From the sequence record OL451225.1: a DNA stretch of 64,000 bases. One strand, 5' to 3'. Both the position numbers and the translations under genes were made by a program. Below the pieces are notes generated by a model that was not told the origin of the DNA, made no database searches, and saw nothing but the letters and a program-made list of their open reading frames with translations. This DNA is from Escherichia phage P896. This document shows positions 11,302 to 55,537 of the stretch, piece by piece. How positions within the stretch are numbered: position 1 is the stretch's first letter; every line of letters starts with the position of its first letter.

Positions 11302-11583
11302 TCAATCAATATAATATTCTAGACCAAAATCATCAATTTCTTCTTGAATTTCTCTTAATACTTGTTCTTCATCTAGACCAGACCCAAAAGTTACTTTAGC
11401 ATAACCTGGACGTTCACAAGAGAACCGAATTGTGTATTCCGGTTGGATATATCCAAAACTACTATCCAAATCACAAAGAATTTCTGCATAGATTTCGTCG
11501 CCGACAGCAGCATGAATTTTAAAAAGTTCATCAATGAGAATAACTAGTTCAGTTGCTTCGTACGTATGGAGTTTAGTAATCAT
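11302..11583 (-). CDS. arn: Acidic small protein, Arn-like (anti-restriction, DNA mimic) by size and position
   Basis: 93 aa, strongly acidic (many D/E), between asiA and motA; T4 Arn is about 92 aa. Assignment is by size, position and charge only. Confidence 0.45.
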   Translation of the reverse strand: MITKLHTYEATELVILIDELFKIHAAVGDEIYAEILCDLDSSFGYIQPEYTIRFSCERPGYAKVTFGSGLDEEQVLREIQEEIDDFGLEYYID

Positions 11584-18101: not shown

Positions 18102-18695
18102 TCAGCTTGTAAACCGGTGATAGGGAAATTTTTCTTCTGAACAAGAACGGAGGTACCAGCCATCCCCTTGTGACTTCTGCACAAGACCAGACTCAGGAAC
18201 GAAAGCACCAGGTCCAGCAAGGAATTTTGGTTTAAATCTATAACCTTTGAGAGTCTCTTTTACATCGAGCATAATCATAAGGTCAGCAAGCTTGTGTTGC
18301 ATAAAAGGACCAAGATTGACCCCGTAACCATGCGGATAATCGCCCTGGTGACCAGTATGCACGGATATCCATTTGGAACCGGACTGATGAGTCTTGACTT
18401 CAATTCTTACGCCTTCTTTCGAAACTACATCAAATGCAAAGGAATAAGGATTATCGTAATCTTCATCACCGCCGCATAAAAAACCGGAGGTCCATTTGGC
18501 AATAGCTTGTTCAGCCATTGTGGCCACCATACATCTTTGCATGACTTGCTCACGGTCCTGACCTGGGTCTTTACGCAATGAATACCTGGCCGTGTCTACA
18601 ATCTTCTGCAGGGATTCAGGGGTTAAGTCTTCCTTCGTATAAAGAAAGGAGGGCATCTTTTTCAGATGCTCCCATGTTTTACTCTTCTGAATCAT
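18102..18695 (-). CDS. denB: Endonuclease IV DenB (candidate, by size and position)
   Basis: 197 aa ORF (T4 DenB about 185 aa) located before rIIB as in T4; no motif-level confirmation. Confidence 0.45.
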   Translation of the reverse strand: MIQKSKTWEHLKKMPSFLYTKEDLTPESLQKIVDTARYSLRKDPGQDREQVMQRCMVATMAEQAIAKWTSGFLCGGDEDYDNPYSFAFDVVSKEGVRIEVKTHQSGSKWISVHTGHQGDYPHGYGVNLGPFMQHKLADLMIMLDVKETLKGYRFKPKFLAGPGAFVPESGLVQKSQGDGWYLRSCSEEKFPYHRFTS

Positions 18696-22393: not shown

Positions 22394-22400
22394 GTTTTTC

Positions 22401-22610
22401 TCACTTTATGTTACGTTTGATTAATTCTGCAACTTCAAGAAGTTCATCCTTTGTTGCGGTGTCTGAAGCTATTTTATTACGGATTTCTTTGAAGCGTTCT
22501 TTAAACTCTTCGGCTTCTCTTATATCAAAAAATCGTTGGATAACGCGGTATTCTTTATGAACAGCTTTATCAAACAGCTCCATATTAACTTTGAAGTTCG
22601 TCATTTCCAA
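22401..22610 (-). CDS. Hypothetical protein (rIIA.1 position)
   Basis: 69 aa ORF in track. Confidence 0.45.
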   Translation of the reverse strand: MEMTNFKVNMELFDKAVHKEYRVIQRFFDIREAEEFKERFKEIRNKIASDTATKDELLEVAELIKRNIK

Positions 22611-22869
22611 TCTCCTGTAATATTTTTCTCATACTACGCATGGTAGCTTTATGTTCTTGGTCATGGTATATCAATGCAAGGAGTGCTTCAATTCGCTCCT
22701 CAGGGACCTTCTGGCCAGCCTTAATACTCATGGCTGTTGTTCTTACAGCTAATAAGTAACTTCGCTTCCTGTCGCTGTCTGGGAGCTCCTGCACCTTCCT
22801 CAGACCAGCTTCCATAATACAACGAGCAACATTTTGCAGATTAACTAAACTTCCGTCAGACATAATCAT
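22585..22869 (-). CDS. Hypothetical protein
   Basis: 94 aa ORF in track. Confidence 0.45.
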   Translation of the reverse strand: MIMSDGSLVNLQNVARCIMEAGLRKVQELPDSDRKRSYLLAVRTTAMSIKAGQKVPEERIEALLALIYHDQEHKATMRSMRKILQEIGNDELQS

Positions 22870-22917
22870 ATTTTCACCTCAAAGACATCTTAACACACTT
22901 TTTGTGGCTTGTACATA

Positions 22918-22942
22918 ATAAAAAGGTCTCCCGAAGGAGACC
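22918..22942 (-). terminator. Intrinsic terminator-like hairpin
   Basis: ggtctcccgaaggagacc hairpin followed on the minus strand by a T-run. Confidence 0.5.
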
Positions 22943-22947
22943 AAATT

Positions 22948-23136
22948 TTATTCTACTTTATAGACCTGACCATACGCCATGAAAGTTTCACCTTCCCAGG
23001 TTTCGCACGTGATTGTCACAAATTCTGCAAACAAAGGTTTTTTCTCTGCCCAGAGAAAACCATATTCACCGGTAGCGAGTGTAATCCAGTATTTAGTCAT
23101 ATTGTCTCCTAGTAGCGGGAGAATATTCTCCCACAT
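22948..23136 (-). CDS. Hypothetical protein
   Basis: 62 aa ORF in track, just downstream of gene 39. Confidence 0.4.
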   Translation of the reverse strand: MWENILPLLGDNMTKYWITLATGEYGFLWAEKKPLFAEFVTITCETWEGETFMAYGQVYKVE

Positions 23137-23140
23137 CTAT

Positions 23141-24973: not shown

Positions 24974-25014
24974 CTTTCCTCTTGTGTATGGAGGTATTAT
25001 AAGTCACATATTTT

Positions 25015-25038
25015 AAAGCAAAAAGGCCCGAAGGCCTT
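25015..25038 (-). terminator. Intrinsic terminator-like hairpin
   Basis: aggcccgaaggcct hairpin followed on the minus strand by a T-run, at the 3' end of the lipoprotein gene. Confidence 0.5.
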
Positions 25039-34618: not shown

Positions 34619-34900
34619 TTACAATTTGGCGGCTTGGACTGCTTTATTGGCTTCAGTCATTTTAGCTAGATTTTCAGCAGTAGGATTGGCAATGTATTCG
34701 GCTGTAGCTTGAGCAAAAACATTATGAGTTTCGATTACATTTTTAGCATTTTCAGTATTCATATCAATTTCTTGTTTAGATAAATTTTTTAGTTGATTGG
34801 CTAAGAGTTCTACAAAGATTTCAACATTAGCGTTTTCAATTATAGCATTAATATGCTTCTTACGAGCTTTCTTAAGTTGACGTTTATTTAAACGAGCCAT
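34619..34900 (-). CDS. Hypothetical protein (soc.1 position)
   Basis: 93 aa ORF in track. Confidence 0.45.
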   Translation of the reverse strand: MARLNKRQLKKARKKHINAIIENANVEIFVELLANQLKNLSKQEIDMNTENAKNVIETHNVFAQATAEYIANPTAENLAKMTEANKAVQAAKL

Positions 34901-35418
34901 TAATAACCTCGGTCTTGGCGAGCAAAGTTCTCGGCATTTTTCAGGTAATACAGTTTAAAGATTTCTTCTGCTGTCAGACCAAGACCATGGAACATATTCA
35001 GAACAAAGTGCAGGATATCAATCATTTCGAATTTAATTTCGAGCTGGTCTTCAGGAGACAATTCATCAATACGACGATTACGGAATTCAGCATGTTGCGC
35101 TTTCCACGGCTTCCAGCAACTGGATGCGGCTTTCTCACCATTAGACATGCCACCGAGCGAAGTCAGAAGTTCACGGAATTCGTCGTCGACATAATCTTTC
35201 TGGTTACGAAGCCATGCAACAACATCGCCTGCGGTTGCCAATTCATCTGGATGTGTGTTATATTCTGGTTTTTCTGTAGCCAGACGAACCTGCAAAGATT
35301 TCTGCATATCAAGCATAATCTGCAGAGGGTCATCATTGCCTTTTAGGACATCATTATACGCATCTTGCGCTTTATCAACACCAGCAATCAGTTGAGAACA
35401 CTCGTTAAAATGAGCCAT
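34900..35418 (-). CDS. 56: dCTP pyrophosphatase (dCTPase/dUTPase) gp56
   Basis: Track ORF 34900..35436; likely start at ATG 35418 (MAHFNECSQLIAGVDKAQ...); MAHFNEC, DPLQ.MLDMQ, ETAGDVV.W, IDDEFRELLTSLG, SPEDQLEIKFE..DI.HFVLNMF and EEIFKLYYLKN.ENFARQDRGY blocks match T4 gp56 as I recall it. Confidence 0.88.
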   Translation of the reverse strand: MAHFNECSQLIAGVDKAQDAYNDVLKGNDDPLQIMLDMQKSLQVRLATEKPEYNTHPDELATAGDVVAWLRNQKDYVDDEFRELLTSLGGMSNGEKAASSCWKPWKAQHAEFRNRRIDELSPEDQLEIKFEMIDILHFVLNMFHGLGLTAEEIFKLYYLKNAENFARQDRGY

Positions 35419-35502
35419 TATATTTTTCCTTATCAATTCATATTGTTTGTATGTTAATTATATCATATTGGTTTAAAGCATAAATACAAGAAAGGAGGAT
35501 GT

Positions 35503-42847: not shown

Positions 42848-42932
42848 TCATTTTTTCCATAGGCACCATCATATTTTTCTCACAGGTTTAAGATATGATA
42901 ATTATATCACTGTATTTTTAGAGCAATTAATG

Positions 42933-43436
42933 TTAGTTAATACCTTGGCGTGCTTTCTCTTTAGCTACACATTTATTAATATAGCTCAGACGGTTTTGAG
43001 CAGAACGCTGATACATATCGCGGTACTCATTAGCTTTTGGAGAACCCGTCTCCGCTGCCTGATAAGCTTCTGCGCGCATGATGTTTATCTGCATATTGAT
43101 ATATGACATGCAGACCTGCGAAATCTGGTTAACAGTATCCAGGTCATTTTGTCGCTTGGTTTCTGCTTCCAGCTTGGCAATGATTTCGTCATGCTTCGCA
43201 GCTTGCTCGCGTTTGTACTCAATTTCTTGTTGAGCATATTTCGCGCAGTTGTTTCCACATTGATTGTTGTCGCGTTTGTAGATAAGTCCAGTACCACCTT
43301 TGAAATCAAAGGAACCATTATGCACCTGACGGTCTGCAGCAATTCGCGCTTTACCAATCTCGTTGGCATTAACAACATCACCCTGGTAAGCACAACCAGA
43401 TAGCAGCATAACAGCTGCGATAGCTAACTTTTTCAT
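42933..43436 (-). CDS. Lipoprotein with coiled-coil region
   Basis: Track ORF 42933..43463; likely start at ATG 43436 (MKKLAIAAVMLLSGC..., SD GAGGA); it occupies the interval where T4 carries beta-gt and gene 42. Confidence 0.55.
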   Translation of the reverse strand: MKKLAIAAVMLLSGCAYQGDVVNANEIGKARIAADRQVHNGSFDFKGGTGLIYKRDNNQCGNNCAKYAQQEIEYKREQAAKHDEIIAKLEAETKRQNDLDTVNQISQVCMSYINMQINIMRAEAYQAAETGSPKANEYRDMYQRSAQNRLSYINKCVAKEKARQGIN

Positions 43437-43446
43437 TGTATTTTCC

Positions 43447-43590
43447 TCAATTAAAACATTCATAGCGGGCTTGGAGCCCCAAAAATACCCAACCCAAAAT
43501 TAAAGTTGGAATCATATGTGGAGTCATTATTGCCCAGTAGATTGACATACTAAAAAATGCAATCAGTACAATAATTGTAATTATCTTCAT
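43447..43590 (-). CDS. Small membrane peptide (imm.1 position)
   Basis: 47 aa MKIITIIVLIAFFSMSIYWAIMTPHMIPTLILGWVFLGLQARYECFN read by hand; ATGA overlap with the imm stop. Confidence 0.4.
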   Translation of the reverse strand: MKIITIIVLIAFFSMSIYWAIMTPHMIPTLILGWVFLGLQARYECFN

Positions 43591-43829
43591 TTTGCTTCCT
43601 TGATGATAATTACTTGTGCATTTGATTTACGTTCAGCAACGAGTGCCCAGATAAATGCAATAAACCATCCGACCATTGTCCAACCTAACAGGAGGTTAAC
43701 AAAGAAGATTCCGCAATTACTTTTGGTTCCACGCAGTAGCGCGATAATCCACGGCAGAAAATATACCAGTGCAGCCAGGAAGAAAGAACCAGCCCCAAGA
43801 ACAACAGTACCCGCAATTAATGCTTCCAT
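43587..43829 (-). CDS. imm: Superinfection immunity protein Imm (membrane)
   Basis: Track ORF 43587..43901; likely start at ATG 43829, giving an 80 aa two-TM protein (T4 Imm 83 aa) directly downstream of gene 43. Confidence 0.7.
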   Translation of the reverse strand: MEALIAGTVVLGAGSFFLAALVYFLPWIIALLRGTKSNCGIFFVNLLLGWTMVGWFIAFIWALVAERKSNAQVIIIKEAK

Positions 43830-43901
43830 TTTAATATCCTCAAGTTTGTAATCAGTAGTTGATGGAACAATCATACGGCAATCCTTTGCCGTTGTAAACA
43901 C

Positions 43902-46686: not shown

Positions 46687-46706
46687 CGAAGTCCCTTTGC
46701 TTTAAA

Positions 46707-47075
46707 TCAATTACCAATTGTATATTTGGCTACGAGCTTCCAGTCGTCTTTTTGTTTGAAGGAGATAACACGGAAGTTATTTGTTACTGCGAACAATTCA
46801 TTATGCTCTTCTTCTTTGATAGCGATTAAGCCCCAGTCTTCAAGCAGTTGAGCAATGGAATCACGGCGCTGATAGTCTTCGCCATCAATATCCACCTGAC
46901 GACCATCCATGCGCAGCATTTCTTTGAAGTGAACAATATAATAACGACCTTGCTTTTGGAGGATGTGGCAGCTCTGGTACAGCACACGGTCTTTATTATT
47001 TGCGATGCCCATACGGGTCAGAGTTTCTTTAACTTTCAGGAAGTCTTCAGGTTGCTTTAATGTAATTTCAATCAT
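46707..47075 (-). CDS. regA: Translational repressor RegA
   Basis: 122 aa; MIEITLK.PEDFLKVKETLTRMGIANNKD.VLYQSCHILQK.G.YYIVHFKEMLRMDGRQV...NNFRVISFKQK..WKLV.KYTIGN matches T4 RegA as I recall it. Confidence 0.92.
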   Translation of the reverse strand: MIEITLKQPEDFLKVKETLTRMGIANNKDRVLYQSCHILQKQGRYYIVHFKEMLRMDGRQVDIDGEDYQRRDSIAQLLEDWGLIAIKEEEHNELFAVTNNFRVISFKQKDDWKLVAKYTIGN

Positions 47076-49819: not shown

Positions 49820-50071
49820 TTAATCAAAGTATTCATATGCAAACCAGGCTTTGTGTCTGTTCGCGATTATTTTAACATATTCTTCACCGAAAGCGTTTTG
49901 TAAGTCACGTTCAGTAACAAGGTGTTCATCTTTCGAAAAGGTATTAACTAACACATACCGTTTAATTTCAGGGACAGCCAGTAAATGCTGCCCGGTTAAG
50001 AAGTCAGCCATAATAGCCTCTATTATAACATCCTTGTTTAAAGCATTATTCCATAACAGTGAATCGACCAA
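49820..50071 (-). CDS. Hypothetical protein (45.2 position)
   Basis: 83 aa ORF in track. Confidence 0.45.
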   Translation of the reverse strand: MVDSLLWNNALNKDVIIEAIMADFLTGQHLLAVPEIKRYVLVNTFSKDEHLVTERDLQNAFGEEYVKIIANRHKAWFAYEYFD

Positions 50072-51728
50072 CTTTTTTCATCTGGAGATGTTGCCCGTAT
50101 GCTTCCGGGTCATGGTCTCGGTGACTGATAATAAAGATGTTGGTGTCTTCCAATTTGTTCAGGATGGTAGCAATTGCTTTAACCCCCTCTACATCAGTAG
50201 CTGAATCGAAAACTTCGTCCAGAATCAAGGTGTTAATATTAACACCAGATACTTTCGCAGCAATATCACGCCATGTAAACAGCAATGCAATATCGATACG
50301 AGCTTTTTCACCTTGGCTAAATGATGCATAGCTGAAGTCTTCACGTCCACGAGATTTAATCGTTTCGTTGAACTCTTCATCTAACGTAAAACTATAATCA
50401 GCTTCCATAACTTTAAGGTAAGCGTTTATCTGCTTATTAAAGATAGGAATATATTTCTTAATAATAGCACCTTTGATACCGGAATCTTTCAACATATCCG
50501 TTAGGATACCACGTTGATATTTTTCCATCACAAGGTCGGATTTCTGTTTGACTATTTTATCAAGCTGGTCTTGAAGCATTTTAATGTCTGCCGCATGGTC
50601 AATGAATTCTGACTTAGCTTGCTCGATTAATGCTTTAACCTTTTTAGCTTTTTCGACAGTCTGGACTAAGGTTTGTTTCTTAGTTTGAATGTCTTGAGCT
50701 ATTGTACGTTGTTTTTGTCTTGCAGCAGAATACGCATCAAATTGCTCCTGAACAGCGTTCTGGCGAGCTTTATGGTTATCAGCTGATACATTACATTCTT
50801 CAATCTTTGACTCAATCCTGGCGACAATGGGGTCTCCTGGATGCAACTGACTGGCACAAGTCTGACAACAACCACCTTTCTCGTACAGACCAACAACCTT
50901 TCGGTAATCGTCTATCTTCGACTTAATCAGGAATGATTCCTGCTTTAACTTCGTGAGTTCATGCTCAGGGTCTTCTCCCAAGATTATCTCGGTCAGTCTT
51001 GTCGTTGCTTCTTCGATAGTCGTTTTGATTCCACGTGCTTCCGTAGCAAGTTCATCATACATCGTTTGTAGCCGCAACAGATTATCACCTGATAATTTTC
51101 TTTGACGGTCTTCGTTGTCCTGATAGATTTTAATCTGTTGAACAATACCATCATGCTGCACATCCATCACCTGGATTTGACTATTGACTTCGCGGATAAG
51201 AGATTTGTTCAGCTTATCCATATCGGCCAGTACAGAAACCTCTAAAAGGTCTTCGACAAGTTTTCTTCTTGCAGGAGTGGATAGGCCCATAAAAGGGGTA
51301 TATCCAGCTGTGCCGAGTACGACAATCTGTTTGAAGCTTGCATAGGACATTCCGATAAGCTGTTCAAATTCCGCTTGGAAGTCTTTACTGCTGGCAGATT
51401 CATCAAGACGTTTACCGCCACAAGAGATTTCAAAAACATTGGGTTTTTGCCCGCGTTTGATATAGTATTCTTTTCCATCATATTCCATCCACAATTCAAC
51501 GAGCATATCTTTTTTGTTGCTCGAGTTAATCAACTGGCCTTTCTTTACATCACGGAAAGGCTTACCGAACATAGCAAAGGTAACCGCTTCAAGGAACGTA
51601 GATTTACCCGCGCCATTCTTACCGGTGACCAGAGTTTTTTGGACTTTATCCAGTTCAACAGTAATCGGTTGAGCACCAACCGACATAATATTTTTATAGA
51701 TAACTTTCTTAAGCTTAAAAGTCTTCAT
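50046..51728 (-). CDS. 46: Recombination endonuclease subunit gp46 (Rad50/SbcC-like)
   Basis: Track ORF 50046..51740; likely start at ATG 51728 (MKTFKLKKVIYKNIMSVG...), giving 560 aa (T4 gp46 560 aa); Walker A GKNGAGKST, signature FSQGEKARIDIALL, Walker B LILDEVFD. Confidence 0.92.
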   Translation of the reverse strand: MKTFKLKKVIYKNIMSVGAQPITVELDKVQKTLVTGKNGAGKSTFLEAVTFAMFGKPFRDVKKGQLINSSNKKDMLVELWMEYDGKEYYIKRGQKPNVFEISCGGKRLDESASSKDFQAEFEQLIGMSYASFKQIVVLGTAGYTPFMGLSTPARRKLVEDLLEVSVLADMDKLNKSLIREVNSQIQVMDVQHDGIVQQIKIYQDNEDRQRKLSGDNLLRLQTMYDELATEARGIKTTIEEATTRLTEIILGEDPEHELTKLKQESFLIKSKIDDYRKVVGLYEKGGCCQTCASQLHPGDPIVARIESKIEECNVSADNHKARQNAVQEQFDAYSAARQKQRTIAQDIQTKKQTLVQTVEKAKKVKALIEQAKSEFIDHAADIKMLQDQLDKIVKQKSDLVMEKYQRGILTDMLKDSGIKGAIIKKYIPIFNKQINAYLKVMEADYSFTLDEEFNETIKSRGREDFSYASFSQGEKARIDIALLFTWRDIAAKVSGVNINTLILDEVFDSATDVEGVKAIATILNKLEDTNIFIISHRDHDPEAYGQHLQMKKVGRFTVME

Positions 51729-51978
51729 CGTAATAAGCATCCTTGATACATGATTCAGCCATATGGATTAATGCCTCTGGAGTATCATCTTCCATTACAT
51801 TAAAGCTAAATTCCACGGCCCAATCGGTGACTACATAGACTTTGATAAGTTGACCAGTTTCCCGGTCAGTGATAGCTTCAAACCAATACTTAATAGTATT
51901 CGGTTGATTATCGTCGTCAACCACATCACATTCGCGGATATGCTCAAGTCCCGCTTCATTAAAATCATAAAGTCTCAT
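51715..51978 (-). CDS. Hypothetical protein (46.1 position)
   Basis: 87 aa ORF in track. Confidence 0.45.
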   Translation of the reverse strand: MRLYDFNEAGLEHIRECDVVDDDNQPNTIKYWFEAITDRETGQLIKVYVVTDWAVEFSFNVMEDDTPEALIHMAESCIKDAYYDEDF

Positions 51979-52994
51979 TGTTGCACCTCAAGATATAATT
52001 TGTTGGCCAATGCTTTGAGAGCTTTTGATTCTTTCTCATTGGCGTCAGGTAATGCATCGATATATTCTGCCATCATATCTGTTAAGCGTTTTATGTCTAA
52101 CTCTTCATCAGAGTCTGACGTATCAACACTGTTATCAACCTTATTGACAACACGCAATTCATGCACACGCTTTTCTAATTCAGATTCGAACTTGGTCAGG
52201 TCTTTATCGACTTTTTCTACAATAACACGGACTGATAAGTCTTTGAAGTCGTCGTAGTTAATAGTTTCGTTTGGATAGAAAATCTTCCGATGCCAGGTGG
52301 TTTCATTCGGAATAAATTTCATCTCTTCGGTTTCGGTATCAAATTCCCAGAACCCGCGCGGGTCGTTCTCATCACCTGCTGTTAATGTCCATGGTGTCCC
52401 GATGTACTTAACGTTTGCGGCTTCTGAAATGGTATGAAAGTGACCAGACCAAACTTGCTTGTACTTCTTAAGGAAATCAGGCTCAAGTCCGTGGGATTTC
52501 AATCCTTTATAGAAATAAAACCCGGTTAATTCCCAGTGACCGATGCAATATTCAGCCCCAGAAGTTTTGATGTGTTGATGAATGTCAGTTGCGTTCTCGT
52601 CACACATCCATGGAATCATATCAATCTGATAACCGTCAAAATCAACAGTCGTTGGCTTATCGTAGATTTTAACATGGTCATACTTATTCAGGAGTTCAGT
52701 GATAGCATTGGGATGAATCTTATTCTTCAGATTCATGTCATGGTTCCCGACTATCGTGTGCATAGTAATTCCTGCTTCACGAAGGAGTTCCATAATCTCA
52801 CGGCTGAATTCCATCGTCTTATGCGTTACGGCCTTACGGACGTCAAAAATATCACCATATTGAATCCAGACTTTAATCCCATTCGCTTTGGAATATGCAA
52901 TCGCCTGTAAAATACCATCGCGTTGAATGTTTTGAGCCCATGGGTCGTCAGCTTTGACACCCAAGTGCCAATCACCTAAATTTAAAATTTTCAT
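51975..52994 (-). CDS. 47: Recombination endonuclease subunit gp47 (Mre11/SbcD-like)
   Basis: Track ORF 51975..53021; likely start at ATG 52994 (MKILNLGDWHLG...), giving 339 aa (T4 gp47 339 aa); calcineurin-like phosphoesterase motifs GDWH, GNHD, GHFH. Confidence 0.9.
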   Translation of the reverse strand: MKILNLGDWHLGVKADDPWAQNIQRDGILQAIAYSKANGIKVWIQYGDIFDVRKAVTHKTMEFSREIMELLREAGITMHTIVGNHDMNLKNKIHPNAITELLNKYDHVKIYDKPTTVDFDGYQIDMIPWMCDENATDIHQHIKTSGAEYCIGHWELTGFYFYKGLKSHGLEPDFLKKYKQVWSGHFHTISEAANVKYIGTPWTLTAGDENDPRGFWEFDTETEEMKFIPNETTWHRKIFYPNETINYDDFKDLSVRVIVEKVDKDLTKFESELEKRVHELRVVNKVDNSVDTSDSDEELDIKRLTDMMAEYIDALPDANEKESKALKALANKLYLEVQQ

Positions 52995-53181
52995 AAGCCA
53001 AGCACCGTTATCGCAATGCAAAATAAAATTATTGAAATGAACCCGTCAGGAGTGGAAAAGAATCCTATCCAACAAGCTCGTGTGAATGTATAGAATGCCA
53101 TGAATAGCACGACATATCCTAAAAATAATTCCATATGTTCTCCTCAGTTGGTTCATTTTATCATCCCGAATATAAAGCAAA

Positions 53182-53198
53182 AAGGAAGCACTAGGCTT
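53182..53198 (-). terminator. Terminator-like hairpin
   Basis: ggaagcactaggcttcc hairpin followed on the minus strand by a T-run. Confidence 0.4.
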
Positions 53199-53422
53199 CC
53201 TTTCCAATTAATACACCATACAGAGGTTCATGAGAAGACCTGAACTTGATAGGCTTATAGGTAATAGTACCTTCATTTTCTGCTTTAATACGAGCGGCTT
53301 CAAATTGAAGTATCATCTCATTTTTGTCAGATTTAATCTTATCAAAATCCGTCGAATTCGTCATTCATATGACCTCTTAAACTTTTTCGTATTCGTCGTT
53401 CATTAGCCTGCTGTCCATGTTA

Positions 53423-53629
53423 TCATCGTTGCCACCATTTCTTAAGTTGATGTGAGTCTACCCAAACTTTGGATGTCGGCTCAATTTTAACAATACCTTT
53501 TGGAACACCATAAGGGCCAAGGAGCTTACATTCGGTTTCGGACTGCTTGATACAGATATTACCGTATGAGCGAAGTCTGAAAGCGGCTCCAATAAGAAGC
53601 CGTTTAAAAGGTTTATTTACTAATGCCAT
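53423..53629 (-). CDS. Hypothetical protein
   Basis: 68 aa ORF in track. Confidence 0.4.
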   Translation of the reverse strand: MALVNKPFKRLLIGAAFRLRSYGNICIKQSETECKLLGPYGVPKGIVKIEPTSKVWVDSHQLKKWWQR

Positions 53630-53924
53630 TTACGATTTCCCAAATTTGTTTGCGAGTAGAATCCCACATCAACTTAATCAGGTCTTCCGTAACGGGTTGG
53701 CGGTAAATCCCACGCAGTTTAACTAAAGCGTATTTGTATGCTTCAAAATTGTTTTCCAGCACTGCGCCTTGAGCATGCTTATTCAGTCGTGCAATTTCAC
53801 GAGCATTCTTTTTCAGAATCTTCGCTGCTTGGCTGGTTGCTTCAAGTGCGTTCGCTTCTTCGAGACGTTCCTGTGCTTCTTCAATCTGCTTATCGGTCAG
53901 TTGAGAAATATCTGGAGCTTGCAT
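53613..53924 (-). CDS. Hypothetical protein
   Basis: 103 aa ORF in track. Confidence 0.45.
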   Translation of the reverse strand: MQAPDISQLTDKQIEEAQERLEEANALEATSQAAKILKKNAREIARLNKHAQGAVLENNFEAYKYALVKLRGIYRQPVTEDLIKLMWDSTRKQIWEIVNGISK

Positions 53925-53925
53925 A

Positions 53926-54177
53926 TTAATCCTTGGGAGTTAACTCAATTGTAAAATATAGATTAGCATTATCCACATGATAACGGTAATCAACGTTATT
54001 ATCCGGTGAAGTAAATTCCAGATTCCGGACGTTTAAAGGGTCGATATCAATTGGAAGACCTTTTATGTCTCGCAGATAAAGTTTAATGAAATATGGGAGC
54101 GCCGTAAAGTCTTCCTCGATTTTATCTAAAAAATCGGTAATATCAAATTGATGTTCCATATAAAAAATCCAAATCAC
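53926..54177 (-). CDS. Hypothetical protein
   Basis: 83 aa ORF in track. Confidence 0.45.
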
Positions 54178-54700
54178 CCTCTTTATCTTTGGCGCTCTTA
54201 TCAGACCCTGGCGCTTTAACTAAGGAGGATTCGTACTGTGTCATTTTGTCGTAGATGTCCTGGATAAATGTTTCATCAGCCAGAGCCACCATATCGTCAT
54301 CACGTGAATCGTATACGTTATGGACGAAGTAGCTATATTTCTTTGCCATTTCTTTACGTTCTTTTTTGATACGCTGAACGAAAGCATTGAAGCAAGCCAT
54401 TGTTATGTAAGCATGTGGATTATCGTATTTTGTTTCGTCGAAGTTGTGAAGACCTTTTATTGCGGCCTCAATTCCGTCCGCTATCATTTCTTGCTTCCAG
54501 GATTGGGTATATCCGGAGAAGTTGAAACGTTTGCTAAGACCTTCGGCTATAAGCATAATCGCCAGACCAATAACATCGTTCTGGCGAATAATTTTGTTCG
54601 GGTCAGTGTTCGCATTCAGCTTCTGTTTCCACTCCGAAATAGCTTTCAAAAGCTCTTTATTATTTACATAGTTATTCTTGGTTAATTTAATTTCGTTCAT
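54143..54700 (-). CDS. 55: Late-transcription sigma factor gp55
   Basis: 185 aa (T4 gp55 185 aa); [127 protein letters not shown] matches T4 gp55 as I recall it. Confidence 0.93.
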
Positions 54701-55015: not shown

Positions 55016-55281
55016 CAGTACACCAATTGAGCAGCTTCTAAAACATCATCAAGCTTATCAAACTGGTCAATATAATCAATCCCACCAACTTCATCTTTAG
55101 CATACAACCAATATTGGTGGAATTCATATTCAATAATAAAGTGGTCACCTTCAATCTGGAGAACCCCATCACCATTAAATTGAACTGCATAACCCGTAAA
55201 GCGGACATCATTCAGGAGTTCTTCTTTCATAGTAATCATTTCCAAGTTTTTATCGTAATTAGAGAGTTTTATTTTAATCAT
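55015..55281 (-). CDS. Hypothetical protein
   Basis: 88 aa ORF in track. Confidence 0.45.
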   Translation of the reverse strand: MIKIKLSNYDKNLEMITMKEELLNDVRFTGYAVQFNGDGVLQIEGDHFIIEYEFHQYWLYAKDEVGGIDYIDQFDKLDDVLEAAQLVY

Positions 55282-55537
55282 TTAAGTAGTCCAGGAATTC
55301 GTCTAATGTCATGCCTTCCGCCCAAGCTTCCCAAGCATCGATTTTAGTGTACTTGGTTTTAGTACACATAGGATAGATTCTGAATTCATATCCCATTGCA
55401 ATGAAATAATTTAAAGTCCTTTGTAAATAGTATCCTTGGCTAATTTTATGAGCTCGGCGAATTCCATTAGCATACGTATGTTTGTAAGATACTATCACCG
55501 CAACACCTTCAGGTAATTCAATAGCAGGACACATCAT
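55274..55537 (-). CDS. Hypothetical protein
   Basis: 87 aa ORF in track. Confidence 0.45.
   Translation of the reverse strand: MMCPAIELPEGVAVIVSYKHTYANGIRRAHKISQGYYLQRTLNYFIAMGYEFRIYPMCTKTKYTKIDAWEAWAEGMTLDEFLDYLND

Follow-up and report, generated by a model that had tools for sequence, protein, structure and literature searches.

The interval between genes 47 and 55

The sequence analysed here, hereafter the window, is a stretch of 64 kb (64,000 nucleotides (nt); OL451225.1) from the ~171-kb genome of Escherichia phage P896. Our subject is the interval between genes 47 and 55, where phage T4 carries the alpha-glucosyltransferase gene a-gt, and the bearing of that interval on the nature of the phage DNA. 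By megablast the window matches Escherichia phage 212 (98.8% identity), Shigella phage SP18 (97.8%), and VR7 (94%), and on these matches it belongs to Gaprivervirus, the T4-like coliphages of the SP18/VR7 group. Two complete genomes of relatives were assembled alongside it, those of vB_EcoM_RZ (RZ; NC_070780) and phage 212 (PQ765507); the latter is 96–99% identical to the window over most of the window's length.

Gene 47 encodes an SbcD-like recombination endonuclease subunit (51975..52994, minus strand; 339 amino acids (aa); 71% to T4 gene product 47 (gp47) by tblastn; phrog_100, E 6e-133). Its start was placed at the ATG at 52994, as annotated in SP18 and phage 212; the mechanical open reading frame (ORF) reaches 53021. 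Gene 55, which encodes the late sigma factor, occupies 54143..54700 (minus strand; 185 aa; 80% to T4 gp55 and 90% to JS98; phrog_234, E 4e-68). The gap of 1148 bp between the two genes (52995..54142) holds five ORFs, all on the minus strand. The one next to gene 47 (52991..53134) encodes a hydrophobic, predicted membrane protein of 47 aa that is 82% identical to T4 gp47.1 and 98% identical to JS98 47.1 (phrog_6693, E 3.5e-31), and its stop codon overlaps the start of gene 47 (ATGA). It is followed by counterparts of T4 a-gt.2 (53191..53364; 57 aa; 58% to T4, 95% to JS98; Pfam DUF5486, E 6e-20; phrog_2140, E 8e-32), a-gt.3 (53423..53629; 68 aa; 46% to T4, 79% to JS98; phrog_1648, E 8e-28), a-gt.4 (53613..53924; 103 aa; 42% to T4, 78% to JS98; Pfam DUF2654, E 1.9e-23; phrog_951), and a-gt.5 (53926..54159; 77 aa; 39% to T4, 32% to JS98; Pfam DUF5491, E 1.8e-12; phrog_1169). 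The probable start of a-gt.5 is the ATG at 54159; the maximal ORF begins with a GTG and extends to 54177 (83 aa). A 234-nt a-gt.5 coding sequence is annotated in both SP18 and phage 212, and the gene in the window overlaps the 3' end of gene 55.

All five ORFs fall into small-protein families of Pfam or PHROG (E 1.8e-12 to 2.7e-39), while an NCBIfam scan of the five gave no match. They are syntenic with T4, in equal order and with 39–82% identity to the T4 proteins. By these measures they are real, conserved genes, orthologues of T4 47.1 and a-gt.2 to a-gt.5, and the 47-55 locus is ordinary and already annotated. A literature search found no functions for a-gt.2 to a-gt.5 and 47.1. An initial annotation of the sequence had listed ORFs of 68, 103, and 83 aa in 1.15 kb, together with a "possible" ORF of 57 aa. 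Each of them exists on the minus strand, and the 57-aa ORF is the conserved gene a-gt.2, but a fifth gene, the 47-aa 47.1, had been overlooked. The accompanying view that three small ORFs stand here instead of a-gt has to be given up: these ORFs are no substitutes for a-gt, because in T4 the same five genes also adjoin it.

The absence of a-gt from the interval was nevertheless called correctly. The interval contains no ORF of a-gt size, the largest being the 103-aa a-gt.4, and the best tblastn match of T4 a-gt had E 5.9 in the window and E 0.63 across the complete RZ genome, with none at E<1 in phage 212. The T4 map given with the initial annotation, with an a-gt of about 400 aa between 47 and 55, agrees with the T4 record (400 aa, in an interval of 3152 bp), where the order is 55, a-gt.5, a-gt.4, a-gt.3, a-gt.2, mobB, a-gt, 47.1, 47. 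The interval measures 1241 bp in SP18, 1164 bp in JS98, 1148 bp in the window, and 987 bp in RB69. The layout without a-gt in RB69 (Mosigvirus) and JS98 (Dhakavirus) equals that of the window; the 47.1, a-gt.2, a-gt.3, and a-gt.4 proteins of JS98 are 78–98% identical to those of the window, and no 47.1 is annotated in RB69. Homologues of T4 a-gt were found in 657 phage records, essentially those of Tequatrovirus (at least 89% identity) and of Klebsiella T4-like phages (~65%).

An isolate-specific deletion or an assembly artefact would also shorten the interval, and the difference in length from T4, but nothing else, could be cited for it. By megablast, however, 44 independent Gaprivervirus records with 94–99% identity cover the 47-55 query, all with an interval of ~1.15–1.24 kb. 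Because the architecture is identical in these 44 records, lacking a-gt is a genus-wide trait. RB69 and JS98 are alike in this respect, and the junction is a clean, conserved regulatory unit. We regard a deletion or artefact as refuted, with practically no chance of being correct.

A conserved hairpin-promoter unit at the junction

A terminator-like hairpin with a 12-bp stem overlaps the stop codon of a-gt.2 (53178..53206, minus strand; RNA fold -13.7 kcal/mol, z -2.2). Adjoining it, upstream of 47.1 and 47, pattern matching located a MotA-box middle-promoter-like site (53155..53179, minus strand) made up of TGCTTTA, 12 nt, and TAAAAT. This is the MotA arrangement of a TGCTTtA box placed 11–13 nt upstream of a TAnnnT -10 element; the site is a candidate promoter, and from its sequence we infer a role in middle transcription. 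The pattern TGCTTNA-N11-13-TANNNT occurs at 11 sites in the window compared with 3.1 expected, a number not attained in any of 100 shuffles. The minus-strand sites include, besides the one at the junction, 24996..25020, 35457..35480, and 50022..50045, and several sites are found a short way upstream of early or middle genes (39, 56, 45.2, 47.1).

The unit of hairpin, TGCTTTA, and TAAAAT after a-gt.2 is conserved in SP18, JS98, RB69, and T4. T4 shares with the window the flanking genes, the set of five small genes with its order and orientation, and this unit. It differs in having a cassette of ~2 kb downstream of the unit, consisting of mobB (a homing endonuclease gene) and a-gt, and a second unit, with a hairpin, (T)AGCTTTA, and TATAAT, in front of 47.1. 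The T4 cassette is thereby flanked by two similar regulatory units with the common core GCTTTATA. The window shows the conserved arrangement of Tevenvirinae, with 55, a-gt.5, a-gt.4, a-gt.3, a-gt.2, a hairpin with a MotA-type middle promoter, 47.1, and 47. The cassette could have been gained or lost through recombination between the two units, possibly aided by the homing endonuclease.

Search for DNA glycosylation elsewhere in the genome

Taken alone, the missing a-gt is not diagnostic, since RB69 and JS98, which equally have no a-gt between 47 and 55, possess another glycosylation pathway. Arabinosylated 5-hydroxycytosine has been shown in RB69 and is inferred in the Dhakaviruses (PMC13326640). 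By analogy with the arabinose on 5-hydroxycytosine in RB69, glycosylation might persist in the phage studied here through a transferase from a different family, with its gene outside the window. The shared layout of the 47-55 interval speaks for this, as does the coverage of 64 of ~171 kb by the window and a glycosyltransferase search made by sequence alone.

In RB69 and JS98 the interval between uvsX and 43 houses the arabinosylation/5-hydroxy-dCMP (deoxycytidine monophosphate) cluster, which is supplemented in RB69 by ORF003c; in T4 it houses segA, beta-gt, and gene 42. Gaprivervirus has lost the arabinosyl-5-hydroxycytosine module or never had it. The corresponding interval in the window (42848..43901, minus strand; 1054 bp) contains three small genes only. 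By tblastn these include imm, which is retained at 43587..43829 (minus strand), and an ORF of 47 aa resembling RB69 ORF054c and JS98 orf44 (43447..43590, minus strand). The third is an ORF of 176 aa resembling JS98 orf43 (42933..43463, minus strand; phrog_1754), with a lipoprotein-type N-terminus. The last was considered as a replacement of gene 42 and rejected; it is a JS98 orf43/T4 imm.1-like gene whose product has no enzyme domain. The initial annotation was right in reporting beta-gt as missing, and gene 42 is missing from the interval as well. With T4 beta-gt as the query (T2/T6 beta-alpha-gt was not among the queries), no beta-gt was found in the uvsX-43 interval of the window, the best tblastn E value being 4.6. 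On the RB69 map the putative arabinosyltransferase ORF003c (366 aa) lies between rIIA and 39, and at this site the window (22394..23140, minus strand) has three small ORFs of 69, 94, and 62 aa.

The complete genomes gave the same picture. Neither T4 beta-gt nor gp42 had a significant tblastn match in the window, RZ, or phage 212, and the same was true of RB69 ORF003c and 045c–053c/055c and JS98 orf38–42, apart from a weak match of RB69 048c to the relatives' td (E 4.6e-4). The single ThyA-family gene of the relatives is of neither known modifying type. A gp42-type enzyme has Asp177 with an acidic residue at position 143, where the relatives have Leu143; the RB69-type 5-hydroxy-dCMP synthases have D169N, where the relatives' Td has Asp169. 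Ten large unannotated ORFs of phage 212 contain no glycosyltransferase or ThyX Pfam domains. In a further comparison, all ORFs of phage 212 from 70 aa upwards were set against JS98 and portions of T4 and RB69, and no enzyme-like candidate for a lineage-specific modification gene emerged. Those specific relative to JS98 are all shorter than ~220 aa and are small, internal-head-protein-like, or homing-endonuclease-like; the JS98 structural region at 90–120 kb was left out of this comparison, and the matching part of the list was ignored. A genome-wide check for glucosyltransferases, suggested with the initial annotation, was thus made by sequence on two complete relatives, with tblastn and, for a subset of ORFs, with Pfam, and detected none.

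Published experiments on VR7, a congener, point in the same direction. Its DNA has been reported as non-glycosylated, with "modified cytosines", from a restriction panel that included EcoRII and SalI, both sensitive to cytosine methylation, and Csp6I, which only glycosylation blocks; BREX restricts VR7 as completely as it does the unglucosylated T4 147 (PMC6326788). VR7 resembles T4 gt mutants such as T4 147 in having non-glycosylated, C5-modified cytosine DNA and complete sensitivity to BREX. In these laboratory mutants, however, 5-hydroxymethylcytosine (hmC) is made by gp42, whereas Gaprivervirus is a natural lineage without gp42.

What decides against glucosylation is that the uvsX-43 modification module as a whole, rather than a-gt alone, has been lost. 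The genes of the hmC-glucose pathway and those of RB69-type arabinosylation are both missing, and the phage is therefore without DNA glycosylation. A transferase hidden outside the window is highly improbable, considering that the two complete relatives lack ORF003c, the UDP-arabinose genes, a 5-hydroxy-dCMP synthase, and any T4-type glycosyltransferase, that the comparison with JS98 showed no enzyme-like lineage-specific ORF, that the large unannotated ORFs scanned have no glycosyltransferase domain, and that VR7 behaves as an unglycosylated phage. Judged from the genomes compared, the lineage lacks the hmC-glucose pathway as a whole, and a-gt is one of the missing parts. The suggestion that glucosylation in the manner of T4 does not take place in this phage is supported, with a-gt, beta-gt, and gene 42 absent and the relatives' genomes and the VR7 data in agreement. 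Nothing contrary to it, or to the reading of the locus, was encountered. That the lineage has neither a-gt nor T4-type glucosylation was already known, being evident from annotated genomes and published experiments.

Genes directed against cytosine DNA are retained

The T4 dCTPase destroys deoxycytidine triphosphate (dCTP), which is sensible only when cytosine is replaced in the phage DNA, and T4 DenB attacks cytosine-containing DNA. The window has retained both genes. Gene 56 (34900..35418, minus strand) encodes a dCTPase/dUTPase, 83% to JS98 gp56 and with the Pfam domain dUTPase_2, that is annotated as dCTPase in phage 212. The denB gene for endonuclease IV (18102..18695, minus strand), 48% to JS98 DenB, bears the annotation DNA endonuclease IV in both RZ and phage 212. 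The relatives also have Alc, denA, cd, gp1, frd, and td. The identity to JS98 is 48% for DenB, 49% for Alc, and 47% for the deoxynucleoside monophosphate kinase gp1, as against 78–90% for gp56, gp43, nrdA, and gp55. Such divergence of DenB, Alc, and gp1 is what one would expect from the sequences if the C5 substituent to be discriminated differs between the genera.

The combination has been remarked upon before. Nikulin and Zimin noted that Gapriverviruses are without any known enzyme for a non-canonical base and yet keep DenA, DenB, Alc, and dCTPase, and proposed for them an unknown base with its enzyme (PMC8056088, PMC12115623). The puzzle is that common coliphages, candidates for therapy, have lost every known cytosine-modification enzyme and keep the T4 machinery against cytosine DNA.

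The simplest reading of the missing genes would be plain, unmodified cytosine DNA, as in the RB49-type phages (Krischvirus). The lineage has no gene 42 homologue and no glycosyltransferase, and Krischvirus and Pseudotevenvirus are likewise without the hmC gene; these two genera, however, are also largely without dCTPase, DenB, DenA, and Alc (PMC12115623 Table 4). The Gapriverviruses keep gp56, DenB, DenA, and Alc, which in T4 are incompatible with cytosine DNA, VR7 DNA digests as cytosine-modified, and Td carries the dCMP-specific Asp described below. Unmodified cytosine therefore seems quite improbable.

Td carries the signature of a dCMP methylase

The product of the Gaprivervirus gene annotated as td (286 aa) has an Asp at the position of Asn177 of the E. 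coli enzyme in a ThyA-family alignment (VDVFLGLPF-D-IGSY). At this position JS98 Td has Asn, while T4 gp42 and RB69 048c have Asp. Thymidylate synthase becomes a dCMP methylase when Asn177 is replaced by Asp (Liu & Santi 1992; Hardy & Nalivaika 1992, cited in PMC8670742, PMC13326640). Leu143 goes with a methyl rather than a hydroxymethyl product, and D169N marks the 5-hydroxy-dCMP synthases (PMC13326640, PMC8670742). When predicted Asp-type enzymes were co-expressed with T4 gp1, five out of seven made 5-methyl-dCMP (10.1101/2024.12.05.627091). The Td of the relatives combines Asp177, Leu143, Asp169, and Cys146 with the folate- and phosphate-binding residues, which is the signature of a dCMP methylase. 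Apart from Asp177 the active site of Gaprivervirus Td is canonical, with R21, E58, W80, Y94, R126, R127, L143, C146, H147, Q165, R166, S167, D169, G173, H207, and Y209 conserved.

The td loci are at 64846..65706 in PQ765507, 152938..153798 in NC_070780, and 142489..143349 in NC_014792, and each relative's genome has one ThyA-family locus. Asp177 is present in Td of RZ, phage 212, and VR7 and in the Gaprivervirus clusters (SP18, VR25, VR26, UPEC01, DK-13, P479, MN01, CJ20, and Yersinia P8). The residue is rare otherwise: among the 120 closest Td protein clusters Asn was found in 114 and Asp in four Gaprivervirus clusters and one metagenomic T4-like contig, the motif being undetected in the remaining one. 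A search of clusters at 50% identity failed to separate the Gaprivervirus enzyme from T4 Td, both falling into one cluster, and gave background figures only (149 cluster representatives, with Asp in 6 and Asn in 136). An Asp-type Td, with Leu143 and Asp169, is also encoded by Acinetobacter phages 133 (NC_015250 140516..141463) and ZZ1 (NC_018087 143346..144278), which have been reported to be without gp42-type enzymes and to have Alc, DenB, and dCTPase. Acj61, a control with its own dCMP-modifying homologue, has Asn in Td.

The Asp signature of Td, taken together with dCTPase, DenA, DenB, and Alc kept without gp42, leads us to predict 5-methylcytosine (5mC). Judging from these sequences, the Gaprivervirus lineage, including the phage of the window, probably replaces cytosine with 5mC made by Td acting as a dCMP methylase, although our confidence in this step is moderate. 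In the proposed pathway gp56 would convert dCTP to dCMP, and Td would methylate dCMP to 5-methyl-dCMP, with Frd recycling the folate. The gp1 kinase would then take 5-methyl-dCMP to the diphosphate, from which the triphosphate and its incorporation into DNA would follow. Thymidine monophosphate (dTMP) or triphosphate (dTTP) would be supplied either by Cd, through deamination of the methylated nucleotide, or by the host ThyA.

A supply of dTTP by deamination has precedent. The deaminase of a phage inferred to carry 5mC converts 5-methyl-dCTP to dTTP, and labelling of Xp12 indicates the same (10.1101/2024.12.05.627091). Phages with 5mC need no second synthase, because the deaminase turns 5-methyl-dCTP into dTTP. 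The Xanthomonas phage Xp12, in which 5mC takes the place of all cytosine, is like Gaprivervirus in having a ThyA homologue with Asp177 and Leu143, a gene of the dCMP-deaminase family, a deoxynucleoside monophosphate kinase, and no second thymidylate synthase. It differs in belonging to an unrelated family with an unrelated host; the Gaprivervirus enzyme sits at the ancestral td locus and is 65–70% identical to ordinary T4-type Td, and its pathway is a predicted one.

The main alternative is another base, made by an enzyme that escapes recognition, with the Asp of Td either incidental or serving dTMP supply through 5-methyl-dCMP alone. Nikulin and Zimin proposed a base of this kind, reports on VR7 never stated which modification it carries, and many ORFs have no known function. 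Yet the comparison with JS98 revealed no lineage-specific ORF of enzyme size, and the set of Asp177, Leu143, and Asp169 suffices by the published rules to account for a cytosine modification and recurs in two other T4-like lineages without gp42. We consider another base unlikely, although it deserves more weight than plain cytosine or hidden glycosylation, which are minor.

Several points weigh against replacement by 5mC or limit it. The td gene lies outside the 64-kb window and is therefore taken from the relatives for this phage. The VR7 restriction data say "modified cytosines" and no more. An Asp-type Td might keep enough activity on deoxyuridine monophosphate to be a plain thymidylate synthase, and the gp1, Cd, Alc, and DenB of this lineage would have to handle 5mC. 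E. coli K-12 MG1655 is the recorded host of at least one Gaprivervirus (RZ). This strain has McrBC, McrA, and Mrr, which attack 5mC and hmC DNA, and a 5mC phage would therefore need an inhibitor. Even so, we hold the explanation as a whole, namely the reading of the locus, the lack of glycosylation, and a replacement by 5mC that is stated as probable, with high confidence. Our literature search found no published link between Gaprivervirus, VR7, or Tevenvirinae and 5mC; older VR7 papers were not covered by it, and a prior mention is possible.

If the lineage does use 5mC, this would explain why dCTPase, DenB, and Alc are kept without gene 42 or a glycosyltransferase, with phages 133 and ZZ1 having arrived at the same solution, and it would tell what the "unknown non-canonical base" of the comparative papers of 2021 and 2025 is. 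It would represent a switch of function at a thymidylate synthase locus within the T4 family and would provide a natural E. coli phage fully substituted with 5mC; DNA of this type serves as a methylation standard and now comes from the Xanthomonas phage Xp12. It would also predict sensitivity to McrBC-type and BREX-type defences and would bear on the sequencing and engineering of Gapriverviruses. The Asn-to-Asp signature in Td makes the puzzle of the Gaprivervirus base cheaply testable.

Candidate anti-restriction genes

T4 Arn is a 92-aa inhibitor of McrBC. At the position of arn in T4, between asiA.1-like and arn.2-like genes, the window has a strongly acidic ORF of 93 aa (11302..11583, minus strand; phrog_8202), which corresponds to an insertion of 290 bp relative to phage 212 and RZ. 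BLASTP detected no similarity between its product and T4 Arn (E 0.66). It might be an analogue of Arn, and this would matter if the phage has non-glycosylated 5mC DNA. In PQ765507, at ~137.7–139.0 and 150.4–151.8 kb, several Gaprivervirus-specific ORFs start with the capsid-targeting motif of T4 internal proteins (MKTYQEF...). By analogy with T4 IPI*, their products may be injected proteins with an anti-restriction role.

Other differences among the relatives

An ORF of 87 aa in the 55.x cluster (55274..55537, minus strand; phrog_5589) has no JS98 counterpart and is one of several lineage-specific small ORFs. Between gene 43 and regA (46706..46774 in the window) phage 212 has an insertion of ~800 bp that encodes a 204-aa homing endonuclease with an I-TevI-type DNA-binding domain and that the window is without. 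RZ has homing endonucleases beside primase, nrdA, and gene 32, and these are variable among the relatives. Gene 46.1 (DUF5487) is absent from the window at the junction of 46.2 and 46 (51715..51740), where the stop codon of 46.2 and the start codon of 46 overlap. At this junction phage 212 and RZ are ~200 bp longer. The RZ copy shares 90% identity with T4 gp46.1, far above the flanking genes, a pattern that suggests a recent exchange.

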